This document shows positions 6,555 through 40,192 of a stretch of DNA of 52,917 bases, one piece after another. The translations under genes and the position numbers were made by a program. The notes below the pieces were generated by a model. The model searched no databases. It had not been told where the DNA came from and worked only from the letters and a program-made list of their open reading frames with translations. Positions within the stretch are counted from its first letter, which is position 1; each line of letters opens with the position of its first letter. Source of the DNA: Chiloscyllium plagiosum (taxonomy: Eukaryota); NCBI RefSeq assembly GCF_004010195.1, contig NC_057722.1, positions 5,726,571-5,779,487 on the forward strand, written 5' to 3'.

Positions 6555-6781
6555 ACTAGACGGAGGTGGGTACTGCAGATGCTGGAGACTGGAGTCAAGA
6601 TTAGAGTTGGCAAAGCACAGCAGGTCAGGCAGCATCCGAGGAGCAGGAAATTCAACATTTTGGGCAAAAGCCCTTCATCAGCAATTCCTGATGAAGGGCT
6701 TTTGCCCGAAACGCCGATTTTCCTGCTCCTCGGATGCTGCCTGACCTGCTGTGCTTTTCCAGCACCACTCCAATCCGCACC
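6555..6781. mobile_element. Palindromic Penelope-derived insert (two inverted hammerhead units)
   Basis: Inverted arms centred near 6684, flanked by direct CCATTATCA at 6546-6554 and 6782-6790. Confidence 0.75.
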
Positions 6782-18900: not shown

Positions 18901-21900
18901 GCTCTCTCGCATTCCTTTACATCCATAAGACCAGAGAGGGGCTGTGTCCCTGGGACTCTGCAAAATGGGAATGTGGTTGCCCTGTTGCAGCAATCATTTG
19001 TGACATTAGTTCAGTCAAAGTAGACAAGGTCAGTGTCATGACATTCACTGTGACTTTCAAATATTTATAATATACTCAAAAAACAAACAACAGTGAGCCT
19101 TTATCCACTTCTTCTCTGAGGATATCACTGAATATTCCAAAAGACAAATATCTCAAACACACTCCCACCACCTCTAACTAACACACACACACACACCGAA
19201 CTCCCTGTAACATTATACTCCAGTGAGGAAAAGATCTACCTCTAACCATCTTTCTCCAGCCTCAGTTCACAGGGAACCGAATAACAAATGTCAAACATGC
19301 AGATCCACCTGAGCACAACCACAGAGACAACAAAAAGGCACACACACATACATATGGGATTAGGAGCAGGTCACTTGGCCTCTCAACCGTTCAATATGAC
19401 AAAGCTGTTTACACTCTGAGACAATGACAGAAATGGACCCTACAGCCCAAGTAGTCCATACCAACCACAATCCCAAACTAAACGAGTCCCACCTACCTGC
19501 ACTTGGCCCATATCTCTCCAAACTTTTCCGATTCGTGTACTTATCCAAATGCCTTTTAAACGTCGTAACTGCACCTGGATCCACCACTTCCTCTGGAAGT
19601 TCATCCCGCACATGAACCACATTAAAAAAAAAGTTGCCCCTTTTGTCTTTTTAAAAATCTTCCTCCTCTCGCCTTAAAAATATGCCCTCTAGTCTTGAAA
19701 ACCCCCACCCCGGGGAAAGGACATCTGCCATTCACCTTAGCTATGCCCCTCATGATTTTATAAACCTCTATAAGGCCACCCCTCAATCTCCCACTCTCCA
19801 GGGAAAAACGTCCTGGCCTATCCAGCCTCTCCTTGTAACACAAAGCTTCAACACTCTGGCAAATCTTTTCTGAACTCTCAATAATATCCTTCCTGTAACA
19901 GGACAACCAGAACTGGGCAGAGTACTCCAGAAGAGACCTCACCAACATCCTGTACAACCTCAATATGACGTCCCAACTCCTACACTCAAAGGTCTGAGCA
20001 ATGAAGACAAGCGTGCTAAAAGCCTTCTTAATCACCCTGTCTACATTTGACGCAACCTTCAAAGAATCATGTACCTGAACTCCTAGGTCTCTGTTCTATA
20101 ACAAATCCCAAGGCCCTACTTTTAATTGTACAAGTCCTCCCCTCGTTTATTTTACCAAAATCAATACCTCACAAATTAAACTCCATCTGTCATTTGTCCC
20201 ATTCACTGCACTTGTGTTTAATACAAAGGTCTAACAATCTTATAGTGAACTGTAGTGACCATTACAGATCACTGGTATTAAAAAGACCCAGGTTGCACAA
20301 ACTGGGCCTGTTTATTTGGACTTGCTCAAACAGCTGAGCACAAATCAGCACAAAAAAAAATCATATTTCAACAAGCCACGCAGCACTGCGACCGGCTGGG
20401 TTAGTGCAGTCTTTGAACTGACCGATGTAAAATAGTATAAGACCAAAACAAAAATAAGGCCGATGCTGAAACTTTGAAACAAAATACTCAGTGGGTTCAG
20501 CAGCATCTGTAAACAGAGAGACTGATCAAAGGTGAATCAAATATGAGTTTCCTTCAGAACAGAAGACAGAGCAACAGAGGGTTTTATGCCACTGGGGTGG
20601 GGTGGGGTGAGGTGGGGTGAATGGGAGGAAGTAAGATCAAAGGGAGTGTCAGGGATCAGATAGAGGGCATGAGATTTTAAACTGCAAAGAACTTAGTAAA
20701 GTGTAAAACAGCTTGTCTGGTGATGTCTTTCGGTTTGGCCGAATGACATGAGCAGGTTTTTACTTACCGGGCAGTGATGGAGTTAAATTCCTGAAACAAA
20801 ACAGACAGGGAACACAGTGTAATACAGGACATTAACAGGCTCAATCTTACTGAAAGGCTGGCAGGAAGGGTTACACCCACAAGTGGAACCAGCATTACCA
20901 CACATTTACTTTTAGTGGTTTGGCAACAGAGAGCTTGAATAATGATACAAAAAAACTTTTTTTTTTTCCTGTCTTGCACTCATCAGAACATTTCACAAGA
21001 AATCTCCAAATCATTTCACAAGAATGCTATTTTAAAGGGAAAGACAATATTTATGCTGTATGTGAGGTAAATGCTCATTAGTTGGCAAATGCCTGAACCC
21101 ACAGTTATAGAAAAATCAACCCTCTGTACCACTATCCAAACCAATCAGCACTGTCCTCTCAGTGCTGGTGCTCCCCTTCAATTGATATCCTCGTGAATTA
21201 CCTCTGACGAAAAGCTTTGACAAACATGTCTTTGTTCAGCAATATATTTACCTTTGTTGCATGCACAAAAAAAATCATATTTCAACAAGCCACACAGCAC
21301 TGCGACCGGCTGGGTTAGTGCAGTCTTTGAACTGACCGATGTAAAATAGTATAAGACCAAAACAGTATTTCACAGAGGTGTATGTCAAGCCCCAATATCA
21401 GACATTAGACGAGGGTGACAGGTGATTTATTCTAGGAGGTAGTTTAAGCAGGTTAAGGCTTTTTAAGGACAGTGAGGTTCAGTCTGTATGAGCTCAGAAA
21501 CTGAAAGCATTACTGCTATAGGAGTGGGATATAGCAAACAACCCAACCACGTTTGTCCTGAAGAGAAAACAGCCAAAGAAACAGTGTGCAGGGTGAGGGG
21601 GAAAGAGGTTGCAAAGTGCCTGCAAGTGTGGTGCATGAGAGGGAGTGTGAAAGGGAAATAGAAAGAAAAAAAAAGGGAAAAGGCAAAGGAAAAAAATGGG
21701 GAGAGAGAGGAAGAGGGAGAGAGAGAGATGTAGGGTGAGGTGGGGGTGGGGGTGAGAGAAATGGAGTCTGGCAGTTAGAGTACTGGCACAACGATGATAG
21801 AGCCACAGATAATGAATTCAGCAACAGCTGCCTGAAGTGGAAGTAAGCAACATGGTGAGGGATATGTGGTGTCTGAAACAAAACCAACCATGCTCAGATG

Positions 21901-24900
21901 GTCACTCACACAGGCCATGGAAAGGGAATGGATCCACTTTAAAGGAATTTCTTTTAAATGGGGACAGAAGATGACAAAGAGAGCTGTCACTGGCCCAGCA
22001 CATGGAAGCTGAACCCACAGTAAGAGAAAAGCAAGCCTGCCTACACCCATCCAGCTGAGAAAGTCACCCAACAAAGACAAGACAGAGAGCAGATGGAAAA
22101 CTATTACACGGAGTACTAATTACACTAATAATATGAACATGAAGTGGAATACTCCTACTCCTGAGTCCTTCAGACTTGCTTCGCAGTTCAAGGAGATCGT
22201 GGCTTCTCTGCTTGGGGTCTAAACTCCAATTTTCTGTCTGCACTCCATAACACACAGGTCCCTTTCTCATCATAAATTTATCCAATTGAGGTTTGAATAA
22301 CAAGACCCAACCTCAACTACCTTTTGGGAAAGAATTTCAGACTCCAATAACCTTAAACCCTCATCTATCTTAAAGGGGAGAATTCCTAAGCTTAAAGCAT
22401 GTTCCCTAGTTTTAGTCTGCTCCACAGAAAATATTCATCAAATAACCACGCTCTTCAGACCAGGATACTGTGTGTTTCCATAAGAACATCTCTCATTCCT
22501 CTAAACTCCATTGGGTAGAAACCAAACCTTTCTTCATAAGACAATCTCCTCATCCCAGAAATTAGTCCAATGAATCCTTTCTGAATTGCTTCAAAAGCAT
22601 GAATATCATTTATTTTCAAACGAGGAGGCCAAAACAATGCAGTACTGCAGACGTAGTGGCACCAAGGCCCTGAACAGCTGCAATAAAACTTCTCTATTTT
22701 TATTCCCCTTGCAACAAATGATGGCATTCCATTTGCAACCTAGAGGGAACTTCGTGGGAAGCTGCTGAGAGTGGGTTTATTCCACACTTACCTGAATTAT
22801 TCCTGAACAGCACAAGTAGCTCAGCAATTTTAACCAGGCAGTAATACATGCATCAGCCCAAGTACCTTCCCTTCAGGACAGGGAGAGGACAAACAGAACA
22901 GGACAGGACTACCATTCTCAGAAAATAAATGTGTTTCAAAATCAGGTTGGGAGCTGAGCTCGACTGCGAACCACTCAAGAATTAAACACACCGTTTACAC
23001 CAACAGTGCAAACGCCTGTCCAAAACTAGTGTAATGTCCTTCATTGACTCCTGCTTCATGACTGACCGCGGTGCACCTACAAAACCAACACTCCATCAAC
23101 CACTGTCATTCGGAGGAGGAAAGCTGGGAAAATGTAAGCTTTATGGAGCAAGCTATTGCAAAGGCAGGCATGTAGATGATCACTGCCATCAATTATTATG
23201 CACAAATAATGTCAACAAAAGGGGCTCAGTTTGTGTGAAATATTATTGATCATTTAGTATATTGAACAGTCTTATAGATTGCAAGTAAAAGCTACATTAA
23301 CATATTCATCACCTGTATAAATGGGATGTCATCGTACTTTTCTGACAGATTGTTCAGATCCATTAGAGACTTGTCAAATTCTTTGGCTGCATTCTGGACG
23401 TCGAGGATCCTTGCATCGATCTCTGCTGTTACTTGGATCTTCTCCCTGTCTAGCTCTTCGAAAGCTTTCCTCTCTTCATCATCAATCTGCCTCCTGAGAG
23501 CTTCGTATTTCTCCTCAACATTTATTTCCTTCTCCTTTATTGCTGCCTTTGGTGGAAAGGTTTGAGTAAGTAGATAATACAGGGGCTTTACACAAACACA
23601 TCTTGCATATTCACTCTTCACCATCAGTAATGTCAGCTGTACCTCGGGGCTGGTAATCTCTCCTATAGGGAGGAAGGTTGAGAGTTCAAGCCCCACTCCA
23701 GAAACTCGAGCTCTGGACTAACCCTCCAGTATAGTTCTGAGGGAGAGGTGGGCAACATTACGCAGGCTTTTTTTTGGTTGAAGCATTAAACCAAGATCCT
23801 ATATGTTTCTCCAATGGACAGAAAATATCCACAACACTATTTGATAAAGAGTTGGCAGTGTCCTGGTCAATATTTGCCCCTCCACTAACATCTCAAGCTG
23901 ATGACTTGTTCATTGCCTTGTCACTGCAGAAACCTATTGCACCGAAATTCCCTACAGCCAATCACTGTTATAATGTAAAGTGCTTAAGTATCCAGAGATT
24001 ATTCAGGGCACTACAGAAATGCAAATCTTTCTTTTCTCATATAGTATCCCAATAGTAAGACCATATCGTAAAAACAGAGGGAAGGAATGTAATAAATGAA
24101 CAATTTCATCCCATTTCTGATCCATTCACATTGAAAACGTAATTTTTTACCCTCCCATCAAAACTGCGTATAATATCTGTTGCATTTGATGTTGTGTGAA
24201 CCTTAAACAGGAGGAATAGGCCTAGGATGGAAAACTTGAAGAGCAAAAACTAGGGCACCGCTGATATTTGTGAACTTTCTCTCAGTTCACCCCCTCATGT
24301 CCCCATTGTTCACTATCACTCCATCAACCACACAATGTGCATAGATGATGATTTTGGTCAAAGGAACTTCCTTTGGTTAAATGAATGGTGTTAACCCATC
24401 AATAAAGATTGCAAATTAACTGGGGTCGGGGGGGGGGGGCAGTATAGCTGAGGGTCAGCCCGTTGAATAATTTGAATAGATGATAGAAGACAATCACAGG
24501 ATAAGACCGGAAGCTCAGCTGATTTATATCAGAAAAAGGAAACCAACCAGTCCTTCAAGCTACTTTGCCATTCAATGAGGTCATAGCAGAGCTTCTACTT
24601 TAGCATCATTTTCCTGGACCTCCTATATCCCTTGATGTTGTCAAAATATCAATGTGTGTTCAACTAAGCCTTTACAACCGTCTAGGCAGATTATTCTGAT
24701 ATTTAAAGAGAAGCTGTCAAAATCCTGCACTCCCACATTGGCCCAAACGCCACACAGATTAGGGACAAACCCATATCGATTCAGAGTCAGAATACATGTT
24801 TTTTTTCTGGATAGCAAGATGTATCTAGCGTGGTGCCACAGGCTTCAGTCCTTGGAACCCAGCTATTGATAATCTACACTAACGACTTGGACACAGGGAT

Positions 24901-27900
24901 AGAAGGCTCTATGGCCAAATTTACAGACAACACAAAACTAGGCGGGATGGTAAATTCCAATTACAAATGGATATAGATTGGTGAGGAGAGTGTGCCAAGA
25001 TGTGGCAGATGGAGTTTATTGTGGATAAATGCAATGTCATGCATTTGGGTCAAAAAAATGGGAAAGGCAGCCCATTATCTTAATTGGGAGAGACTTCAGG
25101 GTGCTCCAGTGCAGAGGGATCTAGGTGTACCCATTCATGAGTCAAAGAAAACTAGCATGCAGGTGCAGCAGATAATAAAGAAAGAAAATGAAATGTTGGT
25201 TTTTACAGCTAAAGGAATAGAATACAAAGGTAGGTATTGGTGAGACTGCACCTTGAGTATTGTGTAGAGTTTTGGTCCCCTTTATTTGAGGCAGGATATA
25301 GTGGTTTTGGAGGTGGTTCACTGGATTGATCCTAGAGATGAGGGGTCTGTTATATGAAGAGAGATTGAACTGTTCAGCTCTACACTGTCTGGAATTTAGA
25401 AGACTAAGGGGAGTTCAAATTGAGATATTTGAGGTGATAAAAAAGGCGTGGGGTGGATGTTTCCTCTTGTGTGCATTCCAGGATGAGGGGTCATAGTCTT
25501 AGGATAAAGGGTAGCAAATTTAAAACAGAGTGGAGAAGAAACTACTACTCCCACAGGATTGTGAATCTGTGGAATTCCCTACCCCAAAGTGCGGTGGGTG
25601 TTGGGACAGTGAATAAAGTTGAGGAGGAGCTAGACAGACTTTTAATTGGTATTGGGTTGAAGGGATTTGGAGAGAAGACAGAAAAATGGGGGTGAGGAGC
25701 ATATCAGCCATGATCGAATGGCAGAGCAGACTCAATGGGTCAAATGGCATAACCCTGCTCCTAAATCTTACAAACTTTATTAACACATTGTGGATCAAAT
25801 AGGGCTTGGCAAACAAGAGAGAAGAAAGACCTTGTATTTCAGTAACATTAGTACACACCAAAGCTCTTTACAGGCAATGACATACCTTTAAAGTATAGTC
25901 ACTATTGTAATACAGGAAAAGCAACGTTATACTGCCCATAGCAAAATCCAACAAACATCTGTTAATGATCAGATAATGTGTTTTTAGGGGCTGATAGACA
26001 GGCAAATATGGGTCAGGACAACAGGAAAAACCCACCCACTCTTCTGTAAAATATTGCCATAGAATCTTAGGCAGAGCCTCAGTTTCAATTATCAACTGAA
26101 AGAGATTGCTCCAAGTACTGAATTGGAGTTTCAGCCTGGATTAAGTGCTCAAGTCTACAAAGTGGGACCTCAAATCAGGTGGCAGGCTCAGAGGTGTGAG
26201 TGCTACCCACCGAGTAACAGCTGACACCATACGACATTAAGCTTTTCAAAATTTAAATTCATCAACTGGCTAGTTTACTCACCAAAACATTTTCCTTCTC
26301 TTTCTTAACATCTTCAAGAGCAGCTTGGGAAACTTTAACTTTTTGCTTGAGTTCCTCCTGTTGATCTCCCAAATTATTCTAACATGAAGCAGCAGAGATA
26401 AATCATTCCAGGTTGTGATATCATTTTTAAATGTATAAATAGTGTACATGATAAATGAAAAAAAAATCAACAGACTCAGGTTTTAACATAAGTATTAGTC
26501 AACTTTTCATTTTTATTCTGTAAATTACAGAGATCTGCATTTTTCATGTATTAACTTAAACGTTCATAATTGTACAGTACTTTCTGTTATTTTGCTTTCA
26601 ATTCAATGATTGTCCGTAACTATGGAGTTACAATTACTTATTTTATTTGTGTTATCCCAATTCAATACCAGCTATCATGATTATTAATTAACCAAATATT
26701 CTTGGATCTAACTGAAAGATCTGCACAACTATCAAAGCTTTGCTATACAAATAAAACTCATAAATGACATTGGTACTTGAGGACAGTCTAAAACTGTGGT
26801 CTCCCATTTAAGACAAAGATTTAAGACAGACATTAAGAAATAAACTTTTTCACTCAGTTGTTTGCCTGTGAAATTCTCTTCCCTATGCTGCAGTGGAGGT
26901 TGTGTTATTGGACATTTTTTGAAAAAACAGTGGAGATTCCTGACAATGGAACCAAAGTGAAGAGGGAACAGGGAAGAAAATGGATATGGGGTCACAATCA
27001 AAGCACTTTTCTCATTGGATTTAGAAGAATGAGAGATTGAAACATATAGGATTCTTAAGGGGCTTGCCTGGGTAAATGCTGACAGGATGCTCTCCCTCAT
27101 GGGAGAGTCTAGGACCAGAGGGTGAGAATAAAGAGGTTTCAATTTAAAACTGAAATGAGGTGTAATTTTTCTCTTGAGGGTTGTGTCTTTGGAACTACTT
27201 GCCACAGAGAGCTGTGGGGAGCAGTCACTGTGCAACTTTAAGACTGAGATAGTCTGATTCTTGATGTGGAGGGGAATCAAAGGTTACAGGGAAAACAGGG
27301 GAGAGTTGACATGAGGAATGTCAGATCAGCCATGAATCTAGAGAAGTCTTGAGGGGCCAAAAGGCCTACTCAGTTCGTAATAACAATGTGCTGCATTGTG
27401 CAGCCTCAGGTTATAGGAAGGAAACAGGAAGGGCTTATTTGTAAGATCAAAGATATTTTAATAAATCTGTTCAGATATGCTACTACACCTGCCTGGTGCA
27501 GACGCAGCTTGAACGGAAATGGAGACACTGTCACTGTGTCCAAGAGCTCTTGTACATGTATTCATGTGCTAATTCTACTGCATTATGTAGGAGAGTCCAC
27601 AGATGATCTGCTGTCAATGAAACTTGGCCAGTTCACAGATGTGCGCGCGCGCGCACACACACACACACAGAGACAGATGCACACACACACACACAGAGAC
27701 AGATGCACACACACACACACACACAGACAGATGCACACACACACAGACAGATGCACACACAGACATACCCTCAGCTCCTTTGCTGCTTCACTGACGCTGA
27801 TTAAGTCGTGGCCCTTGTGGCTTCCTATTAAAGCGCAGAGGCTGCAGACACAGGCAGCATCGTCCTTGCAGTAGATCTCCAGCAGCTTTTGGTGTTGTGC

Positions 27901-28323
27901 GCACTTGGCCATCGCCATGTCGGCGGTCGGCTCGGTCAGGGGGTGGCCCTTCAGCACCGCGTTGTCCTGGTGCAGCCGGAGGTGCAGGGAGCACATGGAC
28001 ACCTCACACTGCAGGCAGCTCTTGAGGGCCGAGCGCCTCTTCTTGGTGCAGTAGGTGCAGGGCACGACGCCGTGGCGGGGCTCCAGGGCCAGGTAACCGG
28101 CCACGATGTTGGCCAGTTGGAAGTTCTTCTCCAGGCGGGGCCTGTCCGCCCAGGCCGCCCGGCACTGCGGGCACGAGTAACCCTCCGCCTCCCTCCACAC
28201 CGCCTCCAGGCAGCCCCGGCAGAAGCTGTGCTTACAGCTCAGGATCACCGGCTCGGTGTAAATCTCCAGGCACACCTGGCAGCTCAGCTCCTCCTCCAGG
28301 GGATCCGACACCTCGGCCGCCAT
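12366..28323 (-). CDS. TRIM E3 ubiquitin ligase (RING-Bbox1-Bbox2-coiled coil-PRY/SPRY), TRIM25/TRIM16/finTRIM-like; join of exons 28323-27769, 26378-26283, 23546-23313, 20790-20768, 18093-17963, 12904-12366; 1578 nt, ~525 aa
   Basis: All introns are GT-AG and the phases chain 0,0,0,2,1 with no stop. The 96-, 234- and 23-nt middle exons match typical class IV TRIM genes. Strong Kozak context GGCACCATGG. Orthology is not resolved. Confidence 0.92.
13020..13290 (+). mobile_element. SacSINE1/DeuSINE-like SINE (decayed)
   Basis: AAGTCCCAC..GACTTGAACAC..CAGTGCAGTAC..TGCACTGTTGG..GGATGAAATGTTAAA..GGGAGTTCTCCCC; similar copies at ~23660 and ~25830. Confidence 0.55.
13614..13913 (-). mobile_element. 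HE1-type V-SINE
   Basis: Near-identical to the 5057-5383 copy; (TAGAT)n tail. Confidence 0.9.
14560..16590 (+). mobile_element. Decayed Penelope-like element (RT + GIY-YIG) with downstream pLTR pieces
   Basis: GVAMGSHVGPSY at ~14882, LPLLDLSV..IHYKATD, LYIGETK at ~15745; many frameshifts. Confidence 0.8.
16062..16290. mobile_element. Palindromic Penelope-derived insert with 14-bp target-site duplication
   Basis: TCTGTCCTTTCAAG at 16048-16061 and 16291-16304; intact minus-strand hammerhead core at 16121-16148. Confidence 0.8.
16873..17222 (-). mobile_element. CR1/HER1 LINE 3' fragment
   Basis: Reverse similarity to 7577-7940. Confidence 0.75.
17963..18093 (-). CDS. TRIM exon 5 (131 nt, linker)
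   Basis: ttccag|C LKDISLPLESLPYSLNSVQVKDHIKCSVEGSEEQRSRQIMVKL T|gtaagt; phase 2-1. Confidence 0.82.
19425..20190 (-). mobile_element. CR1-clade LINE 3' fragment
   Basis: ORF 19622-20062: LYRMLVRSLLEYSAQFW..RLRGGLIEVYKIM. Confidence 0.85.
20348..21364. repeat. ~102-bp direct repeat pair (20348-20450 and 21263-21364) flanking the TRIM micro-exon
   Basis: The copies differ by one substitution and by poly-A length. Confidence 0.9.
20768..20790 (-). CDS. TRIM exon 4 (23-nt micro-exon)
   Basis: tttcag|GAATTTAACTCCATCACTGCCCG|gtaagt, reading EFNSITAR; phase 0-2 joins exons 3 and 5. Confidence 0.85.
22180..22725 (-). mobile_element. Old CR1 LINE 3' fragment
   Basis: Decayed ISGMRRLSYEER..MEFRGMRD. 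Confidence 0.65.
23313..23546 (-). CDS. TRIM exon 3 (234 nt, coiled coil)
   Basis: aaag|AAIKEKEINVEEKYEALRRQIDDEERKA...DDIPFIQ|gtgatg; phase 0-0. Confidence 0.9.
23660..24030 (+). mobile_element. SacSINE1/DeuSINE-like SINE
   Basis: GAGTTCAAGCCCCACTCCAG..CATTAAACC..GTGTCCTGGTCAATATTT. Confidence 0.55.
24845..25765 (+). mobile_element. CR1-clade LINE 3' fragment
   Basis: KFTDNTKL, QRDLGV, HLEYCVEFW, RIVNLWNSLP. Confidence 0.85.
25830..26225 (-). mobile_element. SacSINE1/DeuSINE-like SINE
   Basis: Reverse similarity to the 13020 and 23660 copies. Confidence 0.5.
26283..26378 (-). CDS. TRIM exon 2 (96 nt, coiled coil)
   Basis: ttag|NNLGDQQEELKQKVKVSQAALEDVKKEKENVL|gtgagt; phase 0-0. Confidence 0.9.
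26740..27375 (+). mobile_element. CR1 LINE 3' fragments
   Basis: TTTAGAAGAATGAGAG..TCTAGGACCAGAGGG..GATCAGCCATG. Confidence 0.65.
27641..27766. repeat. Compound (CG)n/(CA)n-GACAGATG microsatellite
   Basis: Visible directly; abuts the TRIM exon 1 donor. Confidence 0.95.
27769..28323 (-). CDS. TRIM exon 1: RING (C3HC4), B-box1 and B-box2
   Basis: MAAEVSDPLEEELSCQVC..CKHSFCRGC..CPQC; CTYC..CLQC..CSLH; CAQH..YCKDD..CVCSLC..HKGH. Donor AGG|GTATGT at 27768. Confidence 0.95.
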
Positions 28324-28490
28324 GGTGCCGCGCCGGAAGTGGAGCTGGTGGGCGGGGACGAGGGAGCTGGTTGCACCTCTCCGCCCCTCTTGGTGCGCCG
28401 CCCAAAGAAGCCCCGGCGGCAAACCTGGGCCCCGCGCCTGCGTTCCGCGTGGCAACAAACAGTTTCTCACTCAATTCCCTGAAGATTGTT
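27870..28490. promoter_or_regulatory. CpG island over TRIM exon 1 and its promoter
   Basis: High GC and CpG content. ETS motif CCGGAAGT at 28333-28340, GC box GGGCGGGG near 28350, GAS-like TTCCCTGAA at 28475-28483. Confidence 0.7.
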
Positions 28491-28650
28491 ATTAGTACAA
28501 TTAACACTCATCACGATACTATCACATTCACTACATTATGTTAATTATTCTTTTTAATACAAACATGAATGCACAGGCCTTTTGTTTTCCTTGCAACCCA
28601 GACAATTTTTGTTGTCCTTTTGTTTGCTGCCCAGACAATTTTTGTTCCCA

Positions 28651-28789
28651 CCCAGAAGGAGAAACCAGTAAAAGTTGTGAATGACACATACTGGTCTGAC
28701 TCATCTTATATACCCTCAAAATGGACGACCAGTAGTACCAGTACGCTTACTTCCACCTGTGTTGTTTTTACTGGTTTTTTCCCACTGGG
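28651..28789. mobile_element. 139-bp MITE with CCCAG..CTGGG ends and 2-bp CA target-site duplication, EnSpm/CACTA-like
   Basis: ca|CCCAGAAGGAGAAACCAGTAAAA...TTTTACTGGTTTTTTCCCACTGGG|ca, with internal ACCAGTA repeats. Confidence 0.6.
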
Positions 28790-29149
28790 CAGGTTTTTGC
28801 AGCCCACACAATTTTTTTAAAAAAAATCTTAATTTTGTGCACTGTTGTTTCTTTTTGTCACTGATGTTGCTGCCTTTTAATGATCACTTTAATCATTATT
28901 AATTTGATCATTGTTAATCATTTGAAGATAATGTTAGTTTATTAATCACTTCACAGCAGAACTGAACACAGAGAGATGGGACCTCTACTAGAAGAACAAA
29001 TTGGAGAAATGAAAGGGGCCTAGGGAGGCCCGCAGTCACAGTGAATGTTGCAAACTTGCCCAGTCTTTCAAAAAAAATGTGCTCAGCAGTGGGTGTCCAC
29101 CTTTTATCTTTGTTTGAAGGATCTATTTTCAAATGAATTAATAAGCACA

Positions 29150-29274
29150 CCCAGAAGTGAAAAACAAAATTTTCTTTTTAAAAAAAAGGTACCTGGAAAT
29201 TAACATATTGGTTGTACTGCAGTAGACCAGTATACATCCTTCACAAGTTTTACTGGTTTTCCCGCCTGGATGGG
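29150..29274. mobile_element. Second, degenerate, oppositely oriented copy of the same MITE-like repeat
   Basis: Reverse complement of 29222-29270 (TCCAGGCGGGAAAACCAGTAAAACTTGTGAAGGATGTATACTGGTCTAC) closely matches 28651-28700. The copy starts CCCAGAAG at 29150. Confidence 0.55.
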
Positions 29275-29602
29275 CACCTTTCCCTCTGTTATGTGGAAGT
29301 GCTGCATGTAAGGTGTGTTTTAGAAAAGGTTTTAAGAAACAGATATATGCTTACTCATATCAGTATGTAAAGGTATTGTTGTGTGCTTGTTTCTATTCAG
29401 AACCTGCCCTGGTGCGGTGTTTGAAAATGGCATTCACAAATCAATGGCAGCATTAAGCTCTATGGTCAGGTAAGGTTTCCGAAACCAACCGGGGAAACTA
29501 AAGGCAGCATTATAGCTAGAAATTAAAGCTTTTTACAAATTTAATTGAAAACAGTCTGCTTTGGATGTAATTTTTGAATGTTTTCCACCTCATTCAGATA
29601 CA

Positions 29603-29840
29603 ATGGCGGCAGTCGCAAAATTTGCATTTGTCAGATTCCTTGATGACAATGGGGTATCTAGGATTGTGTCCATTCAGGAGGACGTCCAAAAGTTTAAGCT
29701 CCTGACACACAATCCCAGCAGGGTATATATGGTTCGATGGATCCAGGCGAGCATTGGCAAGTCAGAGGACTATAACTCTGGTGAATATATGCGGAGCCCC
29801 AATGATCCATACTATAAAGCACAGATCATGCTTCTCGCAG
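29603..29840 (+). CDS. BEND5-like coding exon 1
   Basis: Acceptor ttcag at 29597, ACAATGG start, donor G|gtaagt at 29841. A probable non-coding exon ends at 29469 (cag|gtaagg). Confidence 0.88.
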
Positions 29841-32800
29841 GTAAGTGTGATCATCTGAGATAACAGTTGTGTTTGATGATGAGGTATTGATTAAATTTTT
29901 TGTGATCTCATCTCCAGAGTCCCCTGAAGAGATCAGAGCTGAAAGAGCTAAACATAAACTGCTGAAGTATCCTACCTGGGATAGCAATGTGGAATCGGAC
30001 AGTGCCAGTCATGGGCCTGGCCCAAGCAGGAACACACAGGGGAAGAGAGTATTAGAGGCCACTGGTGTGACAAGGGTAGGTGCTTAAGCCATTCATTTGG
30101 TTTTGTTGAGATATGGTCAACAATGCACACTGCGGAGACACATCTAATAAAGAGTAGCACTTGATGTATGGAGCCGTATCTCTCACCCATGCCAAAAAGG
30201 TAACCTCCAATTTCTCTTTGTTGGCAGAAGGATAAGAGAGCTCGGACAGAAAGTGCGTGGAGAAAACATCTGCAGAGGCTAATAGATGGTTTCAAGACCG
30301 AGATGCCCGACTGTGCTCTGGGGAATATGACAGATGCCCTCTCTGTATCAGGAGGGTTTGTGAATGAGATGACCCCGCCACCAAGGATGGTCGGACATGA
30401 CTGGCAGGAAAGGAAACCAGGGCTCATGCAGGTGGAAGCTGAGAACAAAGTCCTCAGGCAGAAGGTGGAGTCCCTAAACAGTGACCTGCAGGAGGCTACA
30501 AGAATCATCCGTCGCCTGCAGGAGAGAATGGACCAGCTGCAGGACCTCAACTGCCGACTCCAAGAGCGACTCCTAAACCGCGCCCAGCGTAACTGATCTG
30601 TTTGCTGAATATGCGATGGTGTGATTTCATGTTTTAGATTCAAGTCTGGGGAAGCTGAGAATAAGGAGCTAATTTTTCTATTTGCTGTGTGTTGTAGCAC
30701 GCCAACCTGCACTGTCCAGACGGGCCGTGGATCTGACAAGACCAGCACTGCCCAGATCAGTGCAGATGAATACGGAGCCTTCACCCACATTCACTGGCAC
30801 AGACGGAGAGACCAGCACCTGTGCAGACAATCTCTATATTCCTATCGATGGAATGGTAATTATAGCGTCATACAGAACTGAAACAGATCCTTCAGCCCAA
30901 CTTGTCTATGCCGACAAGGTTTCGAAACGAAACGAGTCCCACTTGCCTGCATTTAGCCCAGATCCCTCTAAACCTTCCCTATCCATGTACCTATCCAAAT
31001 GTCTCTTAAATGTAGTAACTCTCTACCATTACGTCTGGCAGCTCATTCTAGACACGAACTCCGTGTAATACCGTTGCCCCTCAGGTCCCTTTAAAATCTT
31101 TCCCCTCTCACTTTAAACCTTTGTCCTGTAGTTTTGAGCTCCCCTACTCAAGGGAAAATAACTTAGCTTATCTCTGTGCCTCATGATTTTATAAACCTCA
31201 ATAAGGTCACCCTTCAACTTCCTGCGTTCCAGTGAAAAAACGTTCCAGCCTACCTCATCTTATAACTCAAACCTTGCAGTCCGGGTGACATCCTGGTAAA
31301 TCTTTTCTGCATCCTTTCCAATTTAATAACATCCTTCCTACGGCAGGGTGACCAAAACTGTATGCAGTACTCCAAAACTTGTCTCATCAATGTCCTGTAT
31401 AGCCGAAACATGATATCTCAATTCCTATACTCGATGCTCTGACCAATGAAGACAACCGTGCCAAACGCCTTCTTCACCACCCTGTCTAACTGCAACTCCA
31501 CTTTCAAGAAATTGTATACCTGAACCCCTAGATCTCTCTGGTCGACAACCTGCCTTCCCATTAACAATATAAGTTTTGCCCTTGTTTGTCTTAACAAAAT
31601 GCAACACCTCGCATTTCTCTCAATTAAACTCCATCTGCCATTCCTTGGCCCATTGGCACAGTCGATCAAGATCCTGTTGAGCTTTTAGATAATCAGATTC
31701 ACTGTCCACTATACCATTAATTATCATCACATTGTACCAAGTAATGGTGCATCTGTAGTATGGCGGCTGTGATGTTAAAAATTGGACTCTGTCCGCAGTC
31801 TTCCGCATCTCATCTGTGTGTACCTGGACTCTGTATGTTCACAGTGCACTAAACTGCATTATTTCCAGCAGAAAACTGGTATGTACACTTTTCTGCCACA
31901 GGTTCAACTTCAGGGTGGTCTGGAGATTACAGAGCGCCAATGGGAAAATGTTCTGCGATCGAAGACAAACTCGATGTTTGTCAAGACCCTGGCTGCCGCT
32001 GTATGGGGCTCGGACGTGCTCCGCAATAGGTCGATTCATGGCAGAGTGTGTGCCCGCTTCATCAATGCGGACACACCTCCGGTACCGAAGCCTGCACTTT
32101 CTCCTGTTAAACTGAGTGCTATTAAAGGTAAGCTCAATTGCAAACTGTAATTGCATTTATGTGTTCCCTTACATGCCCTTGATACCTAGCCTTCAGGATC
32201 CTAAACATCATGCCAGCTTTGAATGTACCATTCACATTGTTGTGCTTAGTTTCCTACACAGAACACCGAGGACTAATGTTTGCAGATCAAAGTTGTGTTT
32301 ACTCAAACAAACTCAGAGGGAGTTCTGAGGAAGGGTCACTCAACCCAAAGCATTAACTCTGATTTCTCTCTACCTGCTGAGCTTTTCCAACAATTTCTGT
32401 TCATGAAACTCAGAGAGAGGGTCTCAAGCTGGCTAAACAGATCATTCTGTCCAGATCAGTCTGATACACTCAGAAAATTAACAACTTTCATGCTCTAATA
32501 AAAGCAAAATACTGGGTGAACCAAGATGGCGGCAATCTAGGAAGATCGCTTTGCTGAGCTCTGCACTGCATCGCGGGCGGGACAAAGCCCTAACCCACCC
32601 TACCCAAGTCATCGTGGTATTCTAGAACTCTGAAAAGGTCACAGAGCCCTAGAAAGTTCTAAGAAGTCACTTACCTTCGATCTCGCCGTCCAGGGATGCC
32701 GAAGAAGGAAGCAGGCTCATCTGAGGCTGGGACCACGGCCCAACCCATAGGATCCTTGGATGCTATTTCTTACTTGGCCCTGGTATCGGAACTCACGAAA

Positions 32801-35800
32801 TCTCGCGAGATGCTGGGTAAGCAAATTGGAGATGCCGGCCCCGATCTCTGTTACGGTGCAGAAGCACGAGCTGCAGCTGGGAGACCTCGGGGAAAAGGTC
32901 GGACGAGGTCCAACGCAGGGTCACAGTGGTAGAAGCTGAGACTGATTCCTCCAAGGATAGGATCTGGGCCCAGGAGATGCAGGTCCGCACTTTGCTTGAC
33001 TGGGTTGATTATCTTGAGAACAGAGGCAGGAGGAAAAATATTTGGATTGTTGGTTTGCCGGAGAGTAAGGAAGGTGAGCAACCAATGGAATTTATTGAGG
33101 ATTGGCTGCTGAAATTCCTTAACTTGGAGGCTGGAATGGGAGGTCTGAAGATTGAGAGGGATCATTGGGTCACGGCTTGAAGGCCTGGTCTGGACCAACA
33201 TCCTTGCCCTATCCTGGTGCCGTTCCACAATTATAGAGACAAAGCAGAGAATCATGAAAGCTTCCAGTGTCCAGGGGAAGGATCTGAAGGCCTTAGTTTA
33301 CGAGGGCTGTAGGATCATGTTTTTCCAGGACTTCTCAGTGGCGGTGATTCGGAAAAGGAAATCCTGTAGCGGGTCTAAGGCACTGGTAAATGAATCCCTT
33401 AATCCTTAAGTTTGTGGAGTATTCCTCTAATGAATACAGGGCATTTCTAGACATTAGTTCAGGTTTGGCTAGTAGCCTGTCTGTTCGGGAAGCAGCTAAA
33501 GCTTATGCCAGATGGTTAGTCATTTCCCATTCCACCAGTGGGGAGCGGCAGATGGGTGAACAGCAATGTCTGCCCGAAGCATGGTTGAAGGCAGCTGAGA
33601 AGGCTTACTCTGACAGGCCCTCGTTGGCTAAGTGCTTCGGTCTGCATTGAACTCCACACTCACGCAGACAGGAAAGAAGAAGCTTGCTTTTGCAAGACAA
33701 AGGCTTGTTTGAGCATGGTGACAAACCGGGCAAGTGCTTGCCAGGAAAAAGAGTGACCCCGCTCCCCCCAGTCCATTATGTCGATTAGGGGATGTGCTGG
33801 AAACCCAACCTGTGATTCTAAAAAGATCAATGCGGCATTTCAGAGATTTTACCAGTCTGAAGTTTGTGAGGATGGGCGAGCTAGGATGGAGTCTTTTATC
33901 AAGAACTTGGAGCTTCCAGGTGTAACCCCTGAACAAGTGTTGTTTTCTCAATGCTCCTTATCAGAGCAAGAGGTGCAGGAGGCCGTGTAGCAGCTTCAGA
34001 ATGGAAAGGCGTCTGGTCCTGATGGATTTCCCAGTGAATTTTATAAGGAATTTACAAGCATATTGTCAGGCCTGATGCTCAATACGTTTAATGACTCATA
34101 CATTCATGATCGCCCTTCCCCCATCTCTAAGAGAGGCCAATACCTCTCTTCTTCTTAAAAACTGGAAAGTCCCAGTGGACTGTGCTTCCTGTAGGCCCGT
34201 TTCACTTTTAAATGTTGATTTTAAAATCTTTTCCAAAACTTGGGTGGCACAGTGGCTCAGTGCCTCACAGCACCAGGATCCCAGGTTCGATTCCAGCCTT
34301 GGGCGACTGTGTGGAGTTTGCACATTCTCCCCATGTCTGCGGGAGTTTGCTCTGGTTTCCTCCCACAATCCAAAAATGTGCAGGTCAGGTGAATTGGCCA
34401 TGCTAAATTGCCCATAGTGCTAGGTGCATTAGTCAGAGGGAAATGGGTCTGGGTGGGTTACTCTTCGGAGGGTCGGTGTGGACTGGTGGGGTTGAAGGGC
34501 CTGTTTCCACACTGTAGGGAATCTAATCATAAAAAAAAATCTTGCATTAAGGCTGGAAACTGTGTTGTTGCCTTCTATTATTAAAGAAGACGAGTTGGGA
34601 TTTATAAAGGATCGCAGATCCTCCAATAATGTTAGGAGGTTGCTTATTGAAATGCAAGCATGTCAGCAACAGTCTGTACAGGGATTGGTGATCTCTCTAA
34701 ATGCAGAGAATGCATTTGACCAGGTTGAGTGGCCGTATCTTTTTTATACTCTAGAGCACTTTGGCTTGGGTGAAGCCTTTATAAGATGGGTAAAGATTCT
34801 CTATAGTGATCCTCTCACTGTGGTTCTCACCAATGGTGTGAGATCAAGCAATTTTAATATCTTTAGGGGCAGCCGACAGGGCTGTGCCCTTTCACCACTG
34901 CTTTTTACATTGGTGATCGAGCTGCTGGTGGAGCCCATTTGTAGGGATCTTAATATATTGACTCCAGAAATGGGGTCAAAATAATTTAAGATTTTGTTGT
35001 ATGCAGATGACGTCCTCGTCTTTTTGTCAAATCCAGCAGTTTTGGTGTCTCGTCTGATACAATGTATCAATTTGTTTGGCCTTTTTGGGTTACAAGATCA
35101 GTTTTGCAAAATCAGAGGTTATGCCTATGGGTGGTCTCACGAAAATTTTAGGTTTTGAGGGCGAATCTCTATTCTCTTTTAAGTGGTCACAGGGGGCTTT
35201 CTTTATTTGAGTATATTCATTACTCAAGTTTTTGATCGGCTGTTTAAACCTAATTTTGTTCATTTATTTGACAAAAACAAGGTCTTCGCAGATGGGAGGC
35301 GATTCCGTTTACTTGGTTAGGTCGGATAGCCCTCGTTAAAATGAACATTCTCCCCCATCTATTGTACCCTATGTGAATGCTCCCCTTGATTTTCACTAGG
35401 CAAATGTTCAGGAAACTGAACAGCTGGTTCAGCTCTTTTATCTGGCATCGTAAGCAGCCCCTTATTAAATTAGCTAAACTGCAATTGCCTCAAGGACTGG
35501 GGGGAGTGGATCTCCTGGACATTAAAAACTATCAACTAAGCTCGCTTTTATCTTATGTGAGTGACTGGGCTTGTAGGGACCCTCTTCCAATATGATTAGA
35601 TATTGAAACTTCTCATGCTGTTCCTGGACAAAATGACGACAGTTCAGGAATATTGCCACAACCCAATAGTTATTAAAACTGTTAAAGCGTGGAGGGCAGT
35701 GTGGCAGATTGCAGGCAATATTGCCAAAACATCTATTTTTTTACAGCTATAGTGAGTGTGCCAGGTTTTCAACAGGGATGGTGGACTCTGAGTTTAAATT

Positions 35801-37671
35801 TGGGCAGCTGAAGGGCTTATGCCTGAAACGTCGATTCTCCTGCTCCTCGGATGCTGCCTGACCTGCTGCGCTTTTCCAGCACCAGTCTCTCGACACAGCT
35901 AGGGGTGTGTCTTGCATGGGTGATTTATTTGAGGGGAACACAATGATGGCATTTGACCAGTTAGCACAGAAATACAAGCTATCTAGCAGGGATCTCCTTT
36001 TTTTTTTCAAATTAGGGATTTAATTCAAAAAAGGACAACACTTTCAACCGATCTGTACAGATCTGACATAGAGAAGGGGGTGCTCAGTGCTAAGAACACG
36101 CTTTCTGTCAGCACACTTTATCATCTCTTTTGGGGGGGGTGTGAGATCGAACGACTTTGCAGGGTGTGGCAGGGAGAGTTGGGTGTCGAGATTCCCTCAG
36201 ACATGGCAAGCTATTTAGGAGAATGCGAGAAAGATCTCAATTTGCAATCGGACCCGTGCTTTACAATTGAAGATTCTCCACAGGGTCCACTTGGCTCCAG
36301 ATAGTTTATCAAAATTTAAACCAGGAGTATCTTCAACATGTCCCAAGTGCAAAGCGAGTACGGGCACTCTCGCTCATTGTTTCTGGTTCTGCTGCAGGCT
36401 CCGAATGTACTGGAGCACTGTGGTAGGTGCAATAGAGAGGATCTTTGGGACGAGGGCGGAGGTGGACTCAATTTTTCTTCTTCCCTGTAGATGCGCATAA
36501 GAATACAACTTTTCAACATCCTTACTTTTTGCACAAGAAAGAATATTCTATTAGATTGGGTGTCTGAAAATCCTTCAAGTTTGTTGGGTTGGCATAAGAC
36601 AGTTGTGGAGCATGTCCCTTTGGATTTTCTTACAAGCATGGTGCATCATAAGATTGAGAATTTTATAAGACATGGCAGTCCTTTTTTGACTACGTGGACA
36701 CAGATCTGTTTGCCACACTAATAAAGGTTTTTATATAGCTGTAATGATTGGGTTTTAAGAGTCTAATACCCAGAGAGGGGGAACTGCGAATGTATGAATA
36801 TGTGTAAATTAATGCTCTTGATGGCTGAGAGCCACTGTTTTGTCTCACTGAGCTACATTATTATTATTATTATTTATTTATTAGTTAGTTGTTAGTTATT
36901 ATTTATTTACATGTTTAGTTTTTTGTATATAGATTTGTATGTTTGTACATGAGTGCAGTTTGGTTTTTTATTATTCTTACCTTGTACTGTTTTGAATTAT
37001 ATTGTTTTGCATTGTTGTAATATCAAAATAAATAAAAATGTATTTTTTTAAAAAGCAAACGACTACAGATGCTGGAAATCTAAACCAAACAGAGAATAGC
37101 TGGAGAAACTCAGTAGGTCTGGTAGCATCTGTGGAGAGAGAAACAGTAAATATTTCAAGTCTGGAATGGCTTCTTCAGACGCTCTGCAGTCATTGTACAG
37201 GAATGAAATAAAAACAATGACCAGAAATCTCTGTCCTTTCTCTTAACCTGTGCACAGAAATCTGTTTAAACTCTCGAATCTGCTGCCAAGGCTGATACAG
37301 GCCTTGGGGTGTATAAGGTTCCCCTCCAATCATATCTGATGGTGTGAACACTTTGAGGTGTTCCAGGTTCACACTTGCCAAAATGTGTCTTATTGTATTA
37401 GCTTGTAAAGTGTCATTATATCCCTGTTGTAAACCCTTTCCGTAAAATATTATTTAATTCACACTGCAGTATTATGACTTCATTAATTATATTCTCCCCT
37501 TTTTCTTCCCTATCTTCAGCTTGCTACGGCCACTATCTCAGATCTAAGGGGATGAGTACTGAAGGGGTCTGTAAGGAGCAAGCCCGGGTCCATGGTTATA
37601 TATCAGAGAAGATCATGGACCTAAACAGAACAAGAAAGAGCAGCCTGGCACAAGAGTCGGTGTCACAGTGA
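29603..37671 (+). CDS. BEN domain-containing protein 5-like (BEN-solo with coiled coil); join of 29603-29840, 29918-30075, 30228-30588, 30698-30855, 31902-32127, 37520-37671; 1293 nt, ~430 aa
   Basis: GT-AG introns; phases 1,0,1,0,1 chain without a stop. N-terminus FAFVRFLDDN..KAQIMLLAE, coiled coil LQDLNCRLQERLL and BEN region VKTLAAAVWGSDVLRNRS..PKPALSPVKLS..YISEKIMDLN match my recollection of vertebrate BEND5 (YAFVRFLEDN..KAQILALAE; LRDLNRRLQDVLL; KNLAVMIWGTDVLKNRS..PKPPLSPHKLS..YICEKIMDIN). AATAAA at 37769-37774. Confidence 0.88.
29918..30075 (+). CDS. BEND5-like coding exon 2
   Basis: tccag|(E)SPEEIRAERAKHKLLK...GVTR|gtaggt. Confidence 0.8.
30228..30588 (+). CDS. BEND5-like coding exon 3 (coiled coil)
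   Basis: ggcag|KDKRARTES...ENKVLRQKVESLNSDLQEATRIIRRLQERMDQLQDLNCRLQERLLNRAQ|gtaact. Confidence 0.85.
30698..30855 (+). CDS. BEND5-like coding exon 4
   Basis: tgtag|(P)RQPALSRR...DNLYIPIDGM|gtaatt; phase 1-0. Confidence 0.8.
30862..31717 (-). mobile_element. CR1/HER1 LINE 3' fragment in BEND5-like intron 4
   Basis: QQDLDRLCQWAKEWQMEFN, QRDLGVQV. Confidence 0.85.
31902..32127 (+). CDS. BEND5-like coding exon 5 (BEN domain, first part)
   Basis: cacag|VQLQGGLEITERQWENVLRSKTNSMFVKTLAAAVWGSDVLRNRSIHG...LSPVKLSAIK|gtaagc. Confidence 0.9.
32514..37050 (+). mobile_element. L1-clade LINE, 5' end intact, internally deleted and decayed, in BEND5-like intron 5
   Basis: 5' CAAGATGGCG; ORF1 DYLENRGRRKNIWIVGLPE; ORF2 RPVSLLNVDFKI, GSRQGCALSPLLF, YADD, CPKC..HCFWFC; AATAAA and A-rich end. 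Imperfect duplication AAAAGCAAAATACT (32500-32513) / AAAAGCAAACGACT (37051-37064). Confidence 0.9.
34242..34528 (+). mobile_element. HE1-type V-SINE nested in the L1
   Basis: B box GGTTCGATTCC, V-domain, ATCTAATC tail. Confidence 0.9.
37520..37671 (+). CDS. BEND5-like last coding exon (BEN C-terminal helix)
   Basis: Polypyrimidine tract, then ttcag|(A)CYGHYLRSKG...HGYISEKIMDLNRTRKS..SQ*. Confidence 0.87.
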
Positions 37672-37977
37672 AGAGGAGGGAGGGACTCTGCATTTTTATA
37701 AATGTTTCTTTCTTTTTAAGTGTTGCCATTTTCATAGTGCGGTGTACGCTGTTATGATTTAGATTTCCAATAAAATAGGTTTCAGAATCTTCAATGATGT
37801 TGTCAATAAGATGACTGTGGGCCCTCGCCCACCCAAGCACCAGAGGCCACTGCCAGCCTCAGTAGCTTTTCCATATGCAATTTTCATTTTAGTTCTTCAC
37901 AACTGACCTAATAAATACTATTTGGGCAATGATACCTATATTATAGAGCACCACACTCATTAATGCATATGGGTGCC

Positions 37978-38153
37978 ATGACCAATACTGCTAAGTCTAT
38001 GACCATAATGACAGATGACCAACTGGCATCAGGCGCCCTGACTAGCATTACCAGTGCTATGACCAGTATTACTCATGAATTATATAACAGTGCACAACAT
38101 ATCACAGCAGGCTGGTTTCACACTAATGCCAGTTCCTGGGTTTTCCTTCTGGG
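37978..38153. repeat. Putative right transposon end: ATGACCARTA-like subterminal repeats plus terminal inverted repeat
   Basis: Repeat units at 37978, 37999, 38015, 38038 and 38059. CTGGGTTTTCCTTCTGGG (38136-38153) is a 16/18 inverted match to 28651-28668. Confidence 0.5.
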
Positions 38154-38537: not shown

Positions 38538-40192
38538 TTGATTACCTGCTCCACCAGGGGCCCGAACATTTTAGACCACTGGTACACCACTCTGATGGAT
38601 GCCTACCGCTCCATCCCCCGCCCTCATTTCGGGAACTCCGACCACAATGCCGTGTTTTTACTCTCGGCTTACAGGCAAAAGCTCAAGCCGGAGAACCGCC
38701 CCTCGTGGATACAGGTCCAGTGCTGGTCGGAGGAGGCAGAGGATCAACTCCGGTGCTGTCTGGAATTGGCTGATTGGGCCGTGTTCAAATAGTCCGCAGG
38801 TACCTTGGACAAGTACGCCACCACTGTCACAGACTTTATCAGCAAGTGTGTGGAGGACTATATACCGAGGAAGTCAATCCGGGTGTTCCCCAACAGGAAA
38901 CCCCGGATGAATAAGGACATACAGAACCTGCTAAAAACCAGGCATGAGGCCTTCAGATCAGGAGACCCACTCAAATATAAGGAATCCAAGAATGACCTTA
39001 CCAGAGCCATTAAGACAGCCAAGGACCATACCGATCTAGAGACCCAGACAGACACCCGGTGACTATGGCAAGGACTGAATGACATCACAGGTTCTAAAAG
39101 GAGACAGTGCAAGATAGGAGACGATGACACATCCCTCCCAGACCGTCTCTTCTATGCTCGCTTTGAGCAGCATTTCGGCGGAGAGGTAACACCTATTCCG
39201 ACAAGCCCTGATGAACCTATCCCAACAGTCACTGCATCAGAGGTCAGATCAGTTTTCCTTCGTGTGAATCCAAGGAAAGTGATGGGACCAGGCAGAGTAC
39301 AAGGCCATGCAGTCAGGGCATGTGCAGATCAACTGACAGAGATCTTCTAGGANNNNNNNNNNNNNNNNNNNNNNNNNNNNNNNNNNNNNNNNNNNNNNNN
39401 NNNNNNNNNNNNNNNNNNNNNNNNNNNNNNNNNNNNNNNNNNNNNNNNNNNNNNNNNNNNNNNNNNNNNNNNNNNNNNNNNNNNNNNNNNNNNNNNNNNN
39501 NNNNNNNNNNNNNNNNNNNNNNNNNNNNNNNNNNNNNNNNNNNNNNNNNNNNNNNNNNNNNNNNNNNNNNNNNNNNNNNNNNNNNNNNNNNNNNNNNNNN
39601 NNNNNNNNNNNNNNNNNNNNNNNNNNNNNNNNNNNNNNNNNNNNNNNNNNNNNNNNNNNNNNNNNNNNNNNNNNNNNNNNNNNNNNNNNNNNNNNNNNNN
39701 NNNNNNNNNNNNNNNNNNNNNNNNNNNNNNNNNNNNNNNNNNNNNNNNNNNNNNNNNNNNNNNNNNNNNNNNNNNNNNNNNNNNNNNNNNNNNNNNNNNN
39801 NNNNNNNNNNNNNNNNNNNNNNNNNNNNNNNNNNNNNNNNNNNNNNNNNNNNATCCATCTCCAGCCCTGCTGTCAAGGAAAGGCCACCAGCATTCTCAAA
39901 GATCCATCCCACCTTGGCAAAGTTTTTCTACAACCTCTACCATCAGGGAGAAGGTACAGAAGCCTGAACACACGCACCAGCCGGTTTCAAAACAGTTTCT
40001 ACCCTACTGTTGTTAGAATACTGAATGGACTCACATACTCTTAATATTCGCCTGTACCTGTGTTTTTGTTTTTGCCGCTGTGTACCTATTATTCACTTAT
40101 CTATGCTACTTAACTCTGTAATCTGCCTGTATTGCTCGCAAGACAAAGCTTTTCACTGTGCCTTGGTACACGTGACAATAAATTCAATCCAA
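38538..40192 (+). mobile_element. Rex1/Babar-like LINE fragment spanning the assembly gap
   Basis: TRGPNILDHWYT..PRPHFGNSDH (APE end), VFPNRKPRM; 3' end GCTTTTCACTGT..CACGTGACAATAAA. Confidence 0.8.
39353..39852. other. Assembly gap (500 N)
   Basis: Run of N. Confidence 1.

Follow-up and report, generated by a model that had tools for sequence, protein, structure and literature searches.

A BEN-domain gene probably carried by an En/Spm-type transposon family and domesticated in carpet sharks

A gene for a protein with a single BEN domain lies in a stretch of 52,917 nucleotides from the carpet shark Chiloscyllium plagiosum (contig NC_057722.1, positions 5,726,571 to 5,779,487 of the forward strand; here called the window). 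It is probable that a family of En/Spm-type (CACTA) transposons carried this gene as an accessory gene, and that one copy, the one in the window, was domesticated in carpet sharks. A first-pass annotation had described the gene as intact and BEND5-like, enclosed at positions 28651-38153 by inverted CACTA/EnSpm-like ends, and had proposed that the whole interval is one non-autonomous element, possibly a domestication intermediate. The gene is indeed intact: six GT-AG exons give an open frame of 430 codons, and the product is identical at 430/430 residues to RefSeq XP_043557685.1, a gene for which isoforms X1-X3 are given.

Dispersed copies and their right end

Relatives of the BEN gene were found at no fewer than 42 other loci on 26 contigs of the genome. 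These figures are lower bounds from successive searches (24, 7, 3, 2 and 6 new loci), for which the queries were three of the exons (1, 5 and 6), a relative from Mustelus and the upstream DNA of one copy. The copies are decayed, with in-frame stops in 14 of 24 exon-5 matches and a median identity to the window of 70-72% in exons 5 and 6. Many of them retain the exon order and the intron sequence, and hence spread as DNA.

Of the 31 loci known at that stage, 20 were picked for stronger or multi-exon matches, and 10 kb was read around each. An array of a unit of about 21 bp, together with a terminal motif related to that of a miniature inverted-repeat transposable element (MITE, see below), was present at 11 of these 20 loci and in 0/12 upstream controls; seven of the 11 were scored by leave-one-out and four lay outside the training set. 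Ten of the right ends stand behind exon 6 on the same strand and one is inverted upstream. In the window, the same unit with its palindromic core forms a decayed subterminal array (37950-38135, + strand), followed by the right terminal repeat of the BEN-carrying element (38136-38153, + strand), which ends in GGG and is flanked by AG. At E below 1, a right-end profile made from eight copies, with the window excluded, has its only match in the window at 37999-38146 (E 6e-10), next to which a marginal piece also scored. Of 13 right ends, seven share at least 14 positions with the 19-nt terminal motif and then diverge, the flank being different in each; homology among the copies is limited to about 2-3 kb and stops at this terminal-repeat motif. 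The right end is genuine and belongs with the BEN gene. The transposon origin suggested in the first-pass annotation is thus upheld by dispersed copies with a common right end; of the shared boundaries that it had proposed to look for, the right one recurs with different flanks and the left one was not found.

Two loci are of separate interest. At L060 (G000:C19, near 21.744 Mb; oriented 6080-7000) the right array has grown to about 900 bp and holds 24 sites that nearly match the palindromic core. An upstream inverted match at L052 (G000:C7) was considered as a left end and rejected, being a second right end that carries 3' sequence (oriented 2564-3025); the locus is read as a rearranged or nested element.

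The left repeat as a separate MITE

Positions 28651-28668 match the reverse complement of 38136-38153 at 16/18, as first reported; this is the best such match in the window, and no other site reaches 16. Clusters of ACCAGTA-type motifs near both ends were likewise found again, at 28664-28769, 29225-29251 and 37980-38062. The outer flanks are CA on the left and AG on the right and form no duplication. The first-pass annotation had also noted, as a caveat, that the left repeat closes a 139-bp MITE of its own, and this MITE is indeed present. MITE 1 (28651-28789, + strand), the supposed left end, has CCC...GGG ends and CA/CA flanks, that is, its own target duplication. It splits an array of three tandem copies of 32-33 bp (28585-28819, + strand; copies at 28590, 28623 and 28796), whose spacing is restored on excising the MITE. 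A 22-mer of the array scores 19/22, 22/22 and 19/22 at the three copies, and no match of 19 or more was found in 449,552 control bases.

In a genome search with 28600-29600 as query, 40 of 199 candidates were scored; 30 of the 39 other loci start within 3 bases of 28651, and none runs past about 140 bases or into the gene. With 28790-29149 as query, the only match was the query itself. An exact 2-bp target duplication was seen in 7/15 readable MITE copies as against 14/120 control offsets (P 8e-4; 29 copies examined, 14 unreadable, re-anchored on their terminal bases); an earlier pass, before re-anchoring, gave 4/13 (P 0.013). The MITE profile found one match in 19 BEN loci, about 7 kb off the gene, and none in six further loci. 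MITE 1 is therefore self-contained and is not the left end of the BEN element, so that the proposal of a single element did not hold: the interval is not one unit between two inverted ends. The 16/18 match is not due to chance; it arises from a terminal repeat common to two related elements.

MITE 2 (29150-29274, − strand; 125 bp) belongs to the same family, in reversed orientation, with an internal deletion and CA/CA flanks. Hence two MITEs of one family, both with CA duplications, lie within 620 bp upstream of the BEN gene, compared with one per about 450 kb elsewhere. Since this density is far above the background, their presence is not simply random; local hopping, a preference for related elements or retention as sites for the BEN product may account for it.

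Since a transposase and a left end were not found, the assignment to a superfamily rests on three features. A CCC terminus is seen in the window (GGG at the right end), in seven of 13 right ends at 14/19 or better and in the MITE ends; a subterminal array occurs at 11 of 20 loci as well as in the window, and is long in L060; a 2-bp duplication was read in the related MITE (7/15), the BEN-carrying copies having no readable duplication. By these sequence features the BEN-carrying family probably belongs to the En/Spm superfamily, and the combination of animal En/Spm-like ends with a BEN accessory gene, put forward in the first-pass annotation, gains support.

The window gene in carpet sharks

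Full-length orthologues of the window protein were found in carpet sharks only, with identities of 97% in C. punctatum, 96.5% in Hemiscyllium, 89% in Rhincodon and 88% in Stegostoma, and the 430-residue frame is open in all five species. Purifying selection was assessed at the protein level and by codon position. Compared with Rhincodon (whale shark), 5/123 residues are changed in the BEN region and 26/143 in the linkers (p 4e-4); changes are concentrated in linkers in three species (p 0.012, 4e-4 and 7e-5), with p 0.18 in the closest. Set against the majority of copies, the window has 21 differences in exon 5 at third positions and 11 at first and second positions.

The host neighbour is a TRIM gene (12369-28323, − strand) encoding RING, B-box, coiled-coil and PRY-SPRY regions. 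It stands head-to-head with the BEN gene, the start codons being 1,280 bp apart, lies outside the BEN element and served as the synteny anchor. The TRIM and BEN accessions are adjacent in C. plagiosum (XP_043557684/685) and C. punctatum (XP_072429200/201) and nearly consecutive in Hemiscyllium (XP_060690976/978) and Stegostoma (XP_048398031/034); in Rhincodon they are consecutive in one gene set (g46531/g46532) and 241 apart in RefSeq numbering. Synteny in five species of three families was thus inferred from accession order and not from DNA. Outside carpet sharks, TRIM orthologues are clear and the nearest BEN proteins fall to about 40%; in Carcharodon, a BEN-like gene and the TRIM orthologue are on chromosomes of the same length but have accessions 341 apart. 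In C. punctatum the TRIM-BEN pair occurs twice with near-identical proteins (XP_072429200-204 and XP_072429213-219), either by local duplication or as an assembly artefact.

Taken together, the intact frame, the same TRIM neighbour in five carpet sharks and the purifying selection lead to the conclusion that, judged from sequence comparison, the window copy is a domesticated transposon gene. 'Domestication intermediate' was therefore an understatement. The first-pass annotation had set a conserved syntenic BEN gene, with repeats owed to independent MITEs, against a transposon origin; a syntenic conserved gene and an independent left MITE were both found, but BEN genes at other places in the genome are linked to this right end.

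Selection appears to have acted within the transposon family as well. Mismatches between copies at codon positions 1/2/3, with the window excluded, were 0.38/0.35/0.46 in exon 6 (p 0.0065; 20/31 aligned) and 0.36/0.34/0.46 in exon 5 (p 1e-4; 28/31 aligned), as raw counts that include CpG decay. The exon-5 copies were selected by protein likeness, which inflates that test; the exon-6 set was not so selected. The third-position bias points to a working transposon gene under purifying selection and not to passive cargo.

The six coding exons (all + strand) follow the predicted architecture. Exon 1 (29603-29840) encodes a beta-barrel N-terminal domain, exon 2 (29918-30075) a helix and then a low-confidence linker, exon 3 (30228-30588) a long helix of residues 188-251 that is predicted to form a coiled coil, exon 4 (30698-30855) a linker and the start of the BEN region, exon 5 (31902-32127) the first part of the BEN domain, and exon 6 (37520-37671) its last helices through the stop codon. 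The structure model (mean predicted local distance difference test score 76.5) accordingly shows a beta-barrel at the N-terminus, then a helix of 64 residues and a BEN domain. Foldseek matches of the BEN region are Bsg25A and Insv (4x0g, E 2e-5; 4ix7, E 5e-5; template modelling score 0.8 over the target), so that by structure comparison the window protein has the BEN fold. The top three structural matches of the barrel are hybrid Tudor domains (Z 5.7, 5.5 and 4.9; next row 2.9), the best with a root-mean-square deviation of 2.9 over 54 aligned residues. All fall under Z 8, the level treated as firm, and the modelled barrel may be called weakly Tudor-like.

Removal of the two large intronic insertions shrinks 28651-38153 to 4,106 bp, in agreement with the unit of about 4 kb estimated earlier. 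One is a high-copy repeat in intron 4 (30870-31715, no strand assigned) that is not present in the dispersed copies and that the first-pass annotation labels CR1. The other is a decayed long interspersed nuclear element (LINE) in intron 5 (32503-37055, + strand, limits approximate), with smaller repeats nested inside and a reverse transcriptase match (RVT_1, E 1e-15); we take it to be an L1. A CpG-rich stretch at the TRIM 5' end (27800-28600, no strand assigned; CpG observed/expected 0.64-0.94) is a possible shared promoter of the TRIM and BEN genes. A splice-donor-like site at 29469/29470 (within 29440-29475) aligns with pre-ATG sites in the dispersed loci L059 and L108, and its sequence suggests that it likely marks a non-coding first exon inherited from the element. 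A 500-base assembly gap lies outside the BEN element at 39353-39852.

Relation to BEND5 and competing explanations

The true BEND5 of this genome is a separate gene (G000:C4:113392090-113418124), 76-94% identical to catshark BEND5. The window protein is 29% identical to shark BEND5 (the catshark protein) as against 42% to the Mustelus protein. All five coding introns match those of BEND5 in aligned place and phase, intron 2 lying in a poorly aligned linker, and an N-terminal motif and the coiled coil are common to both proteins; introns 4 and 5 are also found at matching places in a distant, animal-type metagenome contig (L130). The link to BEND5 made in the first-pass annotation is thereby supported, though the window gene is not itself BEND5: orthology was ruled out by the separate BEND5 locus and by the approximately unbiased (AU) test, in which a tree constrained to join the window clade with shark BEND5 was rejected (p-AU 0.0035). 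From this rejection it follows that the element's gene was not taken from shark BEND5. In a 24-row tree, unrooted and with several long branches, the window clade with the Mustelus protein (100/99) and the BEND5 clade (98/91) branch from one unresolved fork, as do multi-copy relatives known from sea cucumber, ticks and two teleosts; a quickly built BEN tree of 78 rows leaves many forks open. A transposon origin of BEND5 may be inferred from the shared gene structure together with the mobile behaviour of its relatives; the tree alone does not show it.

Several relatives deserve mention. The BEN-family gene models Mustelus XP_078063628 (P0007), sister to the window clade, and Carcharodon XP_041038945 (P0006) are possibly younger transposon copies; in Mustelus the copy lies on a 57-kb contig and its frame is open. 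Near-identical BEND5-like genes occur at several loci in Megalobrama and Brachyhypopomus (clusters P0123 and P0049), which is the pattern expected of recent teleost transposition. BEND5-like sequence is fused with carboxypeptidase domains in gene models P0066, P0068 and P0080; vertebrate BEND5 is nested in AGBL4, and such nesting would suit an origin by insertion. In one tick gene model BEN is joined to a domain nearest a 'SAMD3-like' cluster (score 0.82, as a lead only); its relative P0175 had no genome match under a stricter-than-usual first screen. Residues 140-430 of P0008 and the C-terminus of P0029 likewise show BEN joined to a domain near such clusters, again as a lead only; such genes accompany En/Spm elements in fish. 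Among public contigs, one metagenome contig of 1,185 bp matched, and no viral one.

TnpA, the second protein of maize En/Spm, binds the subterminal repeats of that element, and NAIF1 and the MSANTD genes are among the domesticated accessory genes of Harbinger transposons. Animal CACTA/En/Spm elements include the 'TRC' elements, SmTRC1 of Schistosoma and its relatives (PMC1636069), as well as CMC-NA MITEs and ENS1_Cis (PMC6004678). As far as the available passages describe them, these elements share with the present family the first bases CCC, the 2-bp target duplication (here in the related MITE), right-end tandem repeats, spliced genes and many truncated copies, but differ in that a Transposase_21 gene was not found here. 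The passages mention no BEN gene, and 'BEN' has no match in the accessible text of PMC6004678. Maize TnpA is, in the passages at hand, similarly a second DNA-binding product without a catalytic role, encoded by an element whose ends are rich in repeats (PMC1636069). In contrast to the BEN and Tudor-like domains described here, it belongs, as far as tested, to another fold family; unlike the window BEN gene, it is spliced from the transposase transcript. For Harbinger, Myb-like accessory DNA-binding genes are reported to have been tamed by hosts (PMC9179366, in part). The likeness is that the accessory DNA-binding gene and not the transposase is recruited; superfamily and DNA-binding domain differ, and the accessible part of that paper has no match for 'BEN'.

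Like BEND5, Insv and Bsg25A, the window protein has a single C-terminal BEN domain. According to the accessible text, homodimers of Insv bind palindromes and repress, while BEND5 presumably prefers another site (PMC4281564). BEN genes are further known from bracoviruses and poxviruses (PMC4574769, in part), and a survey of human transcription factors does not list BEN among transposon-derived DNA-binding domains in the portions available (PMC11601247). Within the available text of the BEN papers searched by term, PMC4281564 among them, 'transpos' had no match. No link between BEN and En/Spm, nor a transposon-derived BEND5, was found in the titles and abstract openings searched; Pan 2023, Abhiman 2008, Repbase and Dfam may hold one. 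In so far as these partial sources allow, the taming of accessory DNA-binding genes is already known from the Myb-like genes of Harbinger, and the BEN and En/Spm case is apparently new.

The interpretation given at the outset has a number of points against it. No transposase is linked to a BEN copy in the 25 joined loci, where a copy encoding a Transposase_21 transposase had been a suggested check. A genome search with the PF02992 profile, made without an animal En/Spm transposase as query, gave 0/53 candidates at E 0.001, with a silent control, so that its sensitivity is not demonstrated. The best Transposase_21 match (E 0.086, three stops; G000:C1:23533346-23533570, − strand) is accompanied by neither a BEN gene nor an end in the 30 kb read; it could be a chance match or the relic of a very old transposase. 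At E 10 there were 11 weak matches, and the two covering profile positions 91-165, read with their flanks, showed no BEN gene or ends. Within 28651-38153 there is no transposase reading frame, as the first-pass annotation had said, the intron-5 insertion holding RVT_1; a six-frame comparison of the first 20 loci gave retroelement proteins and the BEN unit only, and a Pfam scan of 49 of 149 proteins gave no CACTA transposase fused to BEN. Nine of the 20 loci read have no right end. Among copies, homology upstream of the ATG is firm over about 100-300 bp and weak as far as about 600 bp. In 19 and six further joined loci, over about 10-14 kb upstream where the contig allowed, neither a left terminus nor any upstream coding sequence in common was found; hence none of the BEN copies is bounded at both ends or has a target duplication that can be read. 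The Pfam BEN score of the window protein (20.4 bits, E 6e-4) is below the 23.2 cut-off. The reliance on accession order for synteny and the inflated exon-5 codon test count on the same side.

The competing explanations fare worse. A single non-autonomous element that spans 28651-38153 between matching ends is improbable. The 16/18 inverted match, the related subterminal motifs, the core of about 4.1 kb and the occurrence of two MITEs in 620 bp against one per 450 kb would suit it, but the left repeat belongs to a unit that is complete at 28789, has a CA/CA duplication of its own and splits a continuous array, 30/39 other loci start at the MITE boundary and none enters the gene, the outer flanks differ (CA and AG), and the MITE profile matched a single place, about 7 kb away, in 19 BEN loci and none in six more. 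Capture of a host gene, BEND5 or the window gene, by a Pack-type element as passive cargo, the scattered copies being dead cargo, is unlikely, though less so. Five coding introns that match BEND5 in place and phase and the lack of any copy linked to a transposase are what it would predict; it is opposed by the rejection of a tree joining window gene and shark BEND5 (p-AU 0.0035, from 24 rows with several long branches), the 29% identity to shark BEND5 as against 42% to the Mustelus protein, the third-position excess among the copies, the right end borne by the window gene itself, introns 4 and 5 likewise placed in L130, and multi-copy relatives in two teleosts, a sea cucumber and ticks.

Ordinary segmental duplication of a host gene family, with the repeats incidental, is very improbable. 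Introns are kept and the C. punctatum TRIM-BEN pair is doubled, yet homology covers only about 2-3 kb on 26 contigs and ends at the terminal-repeat motif with different flanks, and this sharp common right boundary largely refutes the idea. Least credible, with hardly any chance of being right, is that the window copy was never domesticated and is an old copy left open by chance in a slowly evolving genome. As host expression and function are only presumed, there is some room for it; against it, the frame is open in five species with changes concentrated in the linkers (p 0.012, 4e-4 and 7e-5; 0.18 in the closest), and exon 5 differs from the copy majority at 21 third as against 11 first and second positions.

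Under the favoured history of an En/Spm-type family with a BEN accessory gene, a cut-and-paste family with animal En/Spm-type ends would have borne a spliced Tudor-like/coiled-coil/BEN gene beside its right end. The dispersed loci show that the family spread as intron-bearing DNA with a common right end, that its BEN frame was under purifying selection and that the copies found have since decayed. The protein, dimerised by its coiled coil, may have bound the palindromic core of the subterminal repeats, by analogy with TnpA in plant En/Spm and with the palindrome-binding dimers of Insv, and aided a transposase encoded by an autonomous partner. One copy inserted head-to-head with the TRIM gene ahead of the split between bamboo, zebra and whale sharks and has remained intact. 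Further insertions came later: LINEs into two introns, and a pair of MITEs with related ends into the upstream region, where one of the pair mimics a left end. In the host the protein most likely binds specific DNA sequences as a repressor or insulator factor, and the TRIM CpG island may drive its gene.

On a wider scale, the balance tips slightly towards a BEND5-type gene being the standard accessory gene of the animal En/Spm class, a counterpart of TnpA, that was tamed repeatedly, long ago to give the BEND5 of vertebrates and once more in the carpet-shark lineage. BEN proteins act as repressors and insulator factors, and where they came from is unsettled in the portions of the literature examined. 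One genome keeps the whole chain: a fossil transposon family, a tamed copy that still has its transposon end, and a BEND5 with the same five introns. It thus becomes testable whether BEND5 was born of a transposon and which DNA is bound by BEND5-type proteins, the subterminal palindrome being the candidate. If this is true, human BEND5 would be an unrecognised transposon-derived transcription factor, and its ancestral target would be the subterminal palindrome of a transposon.

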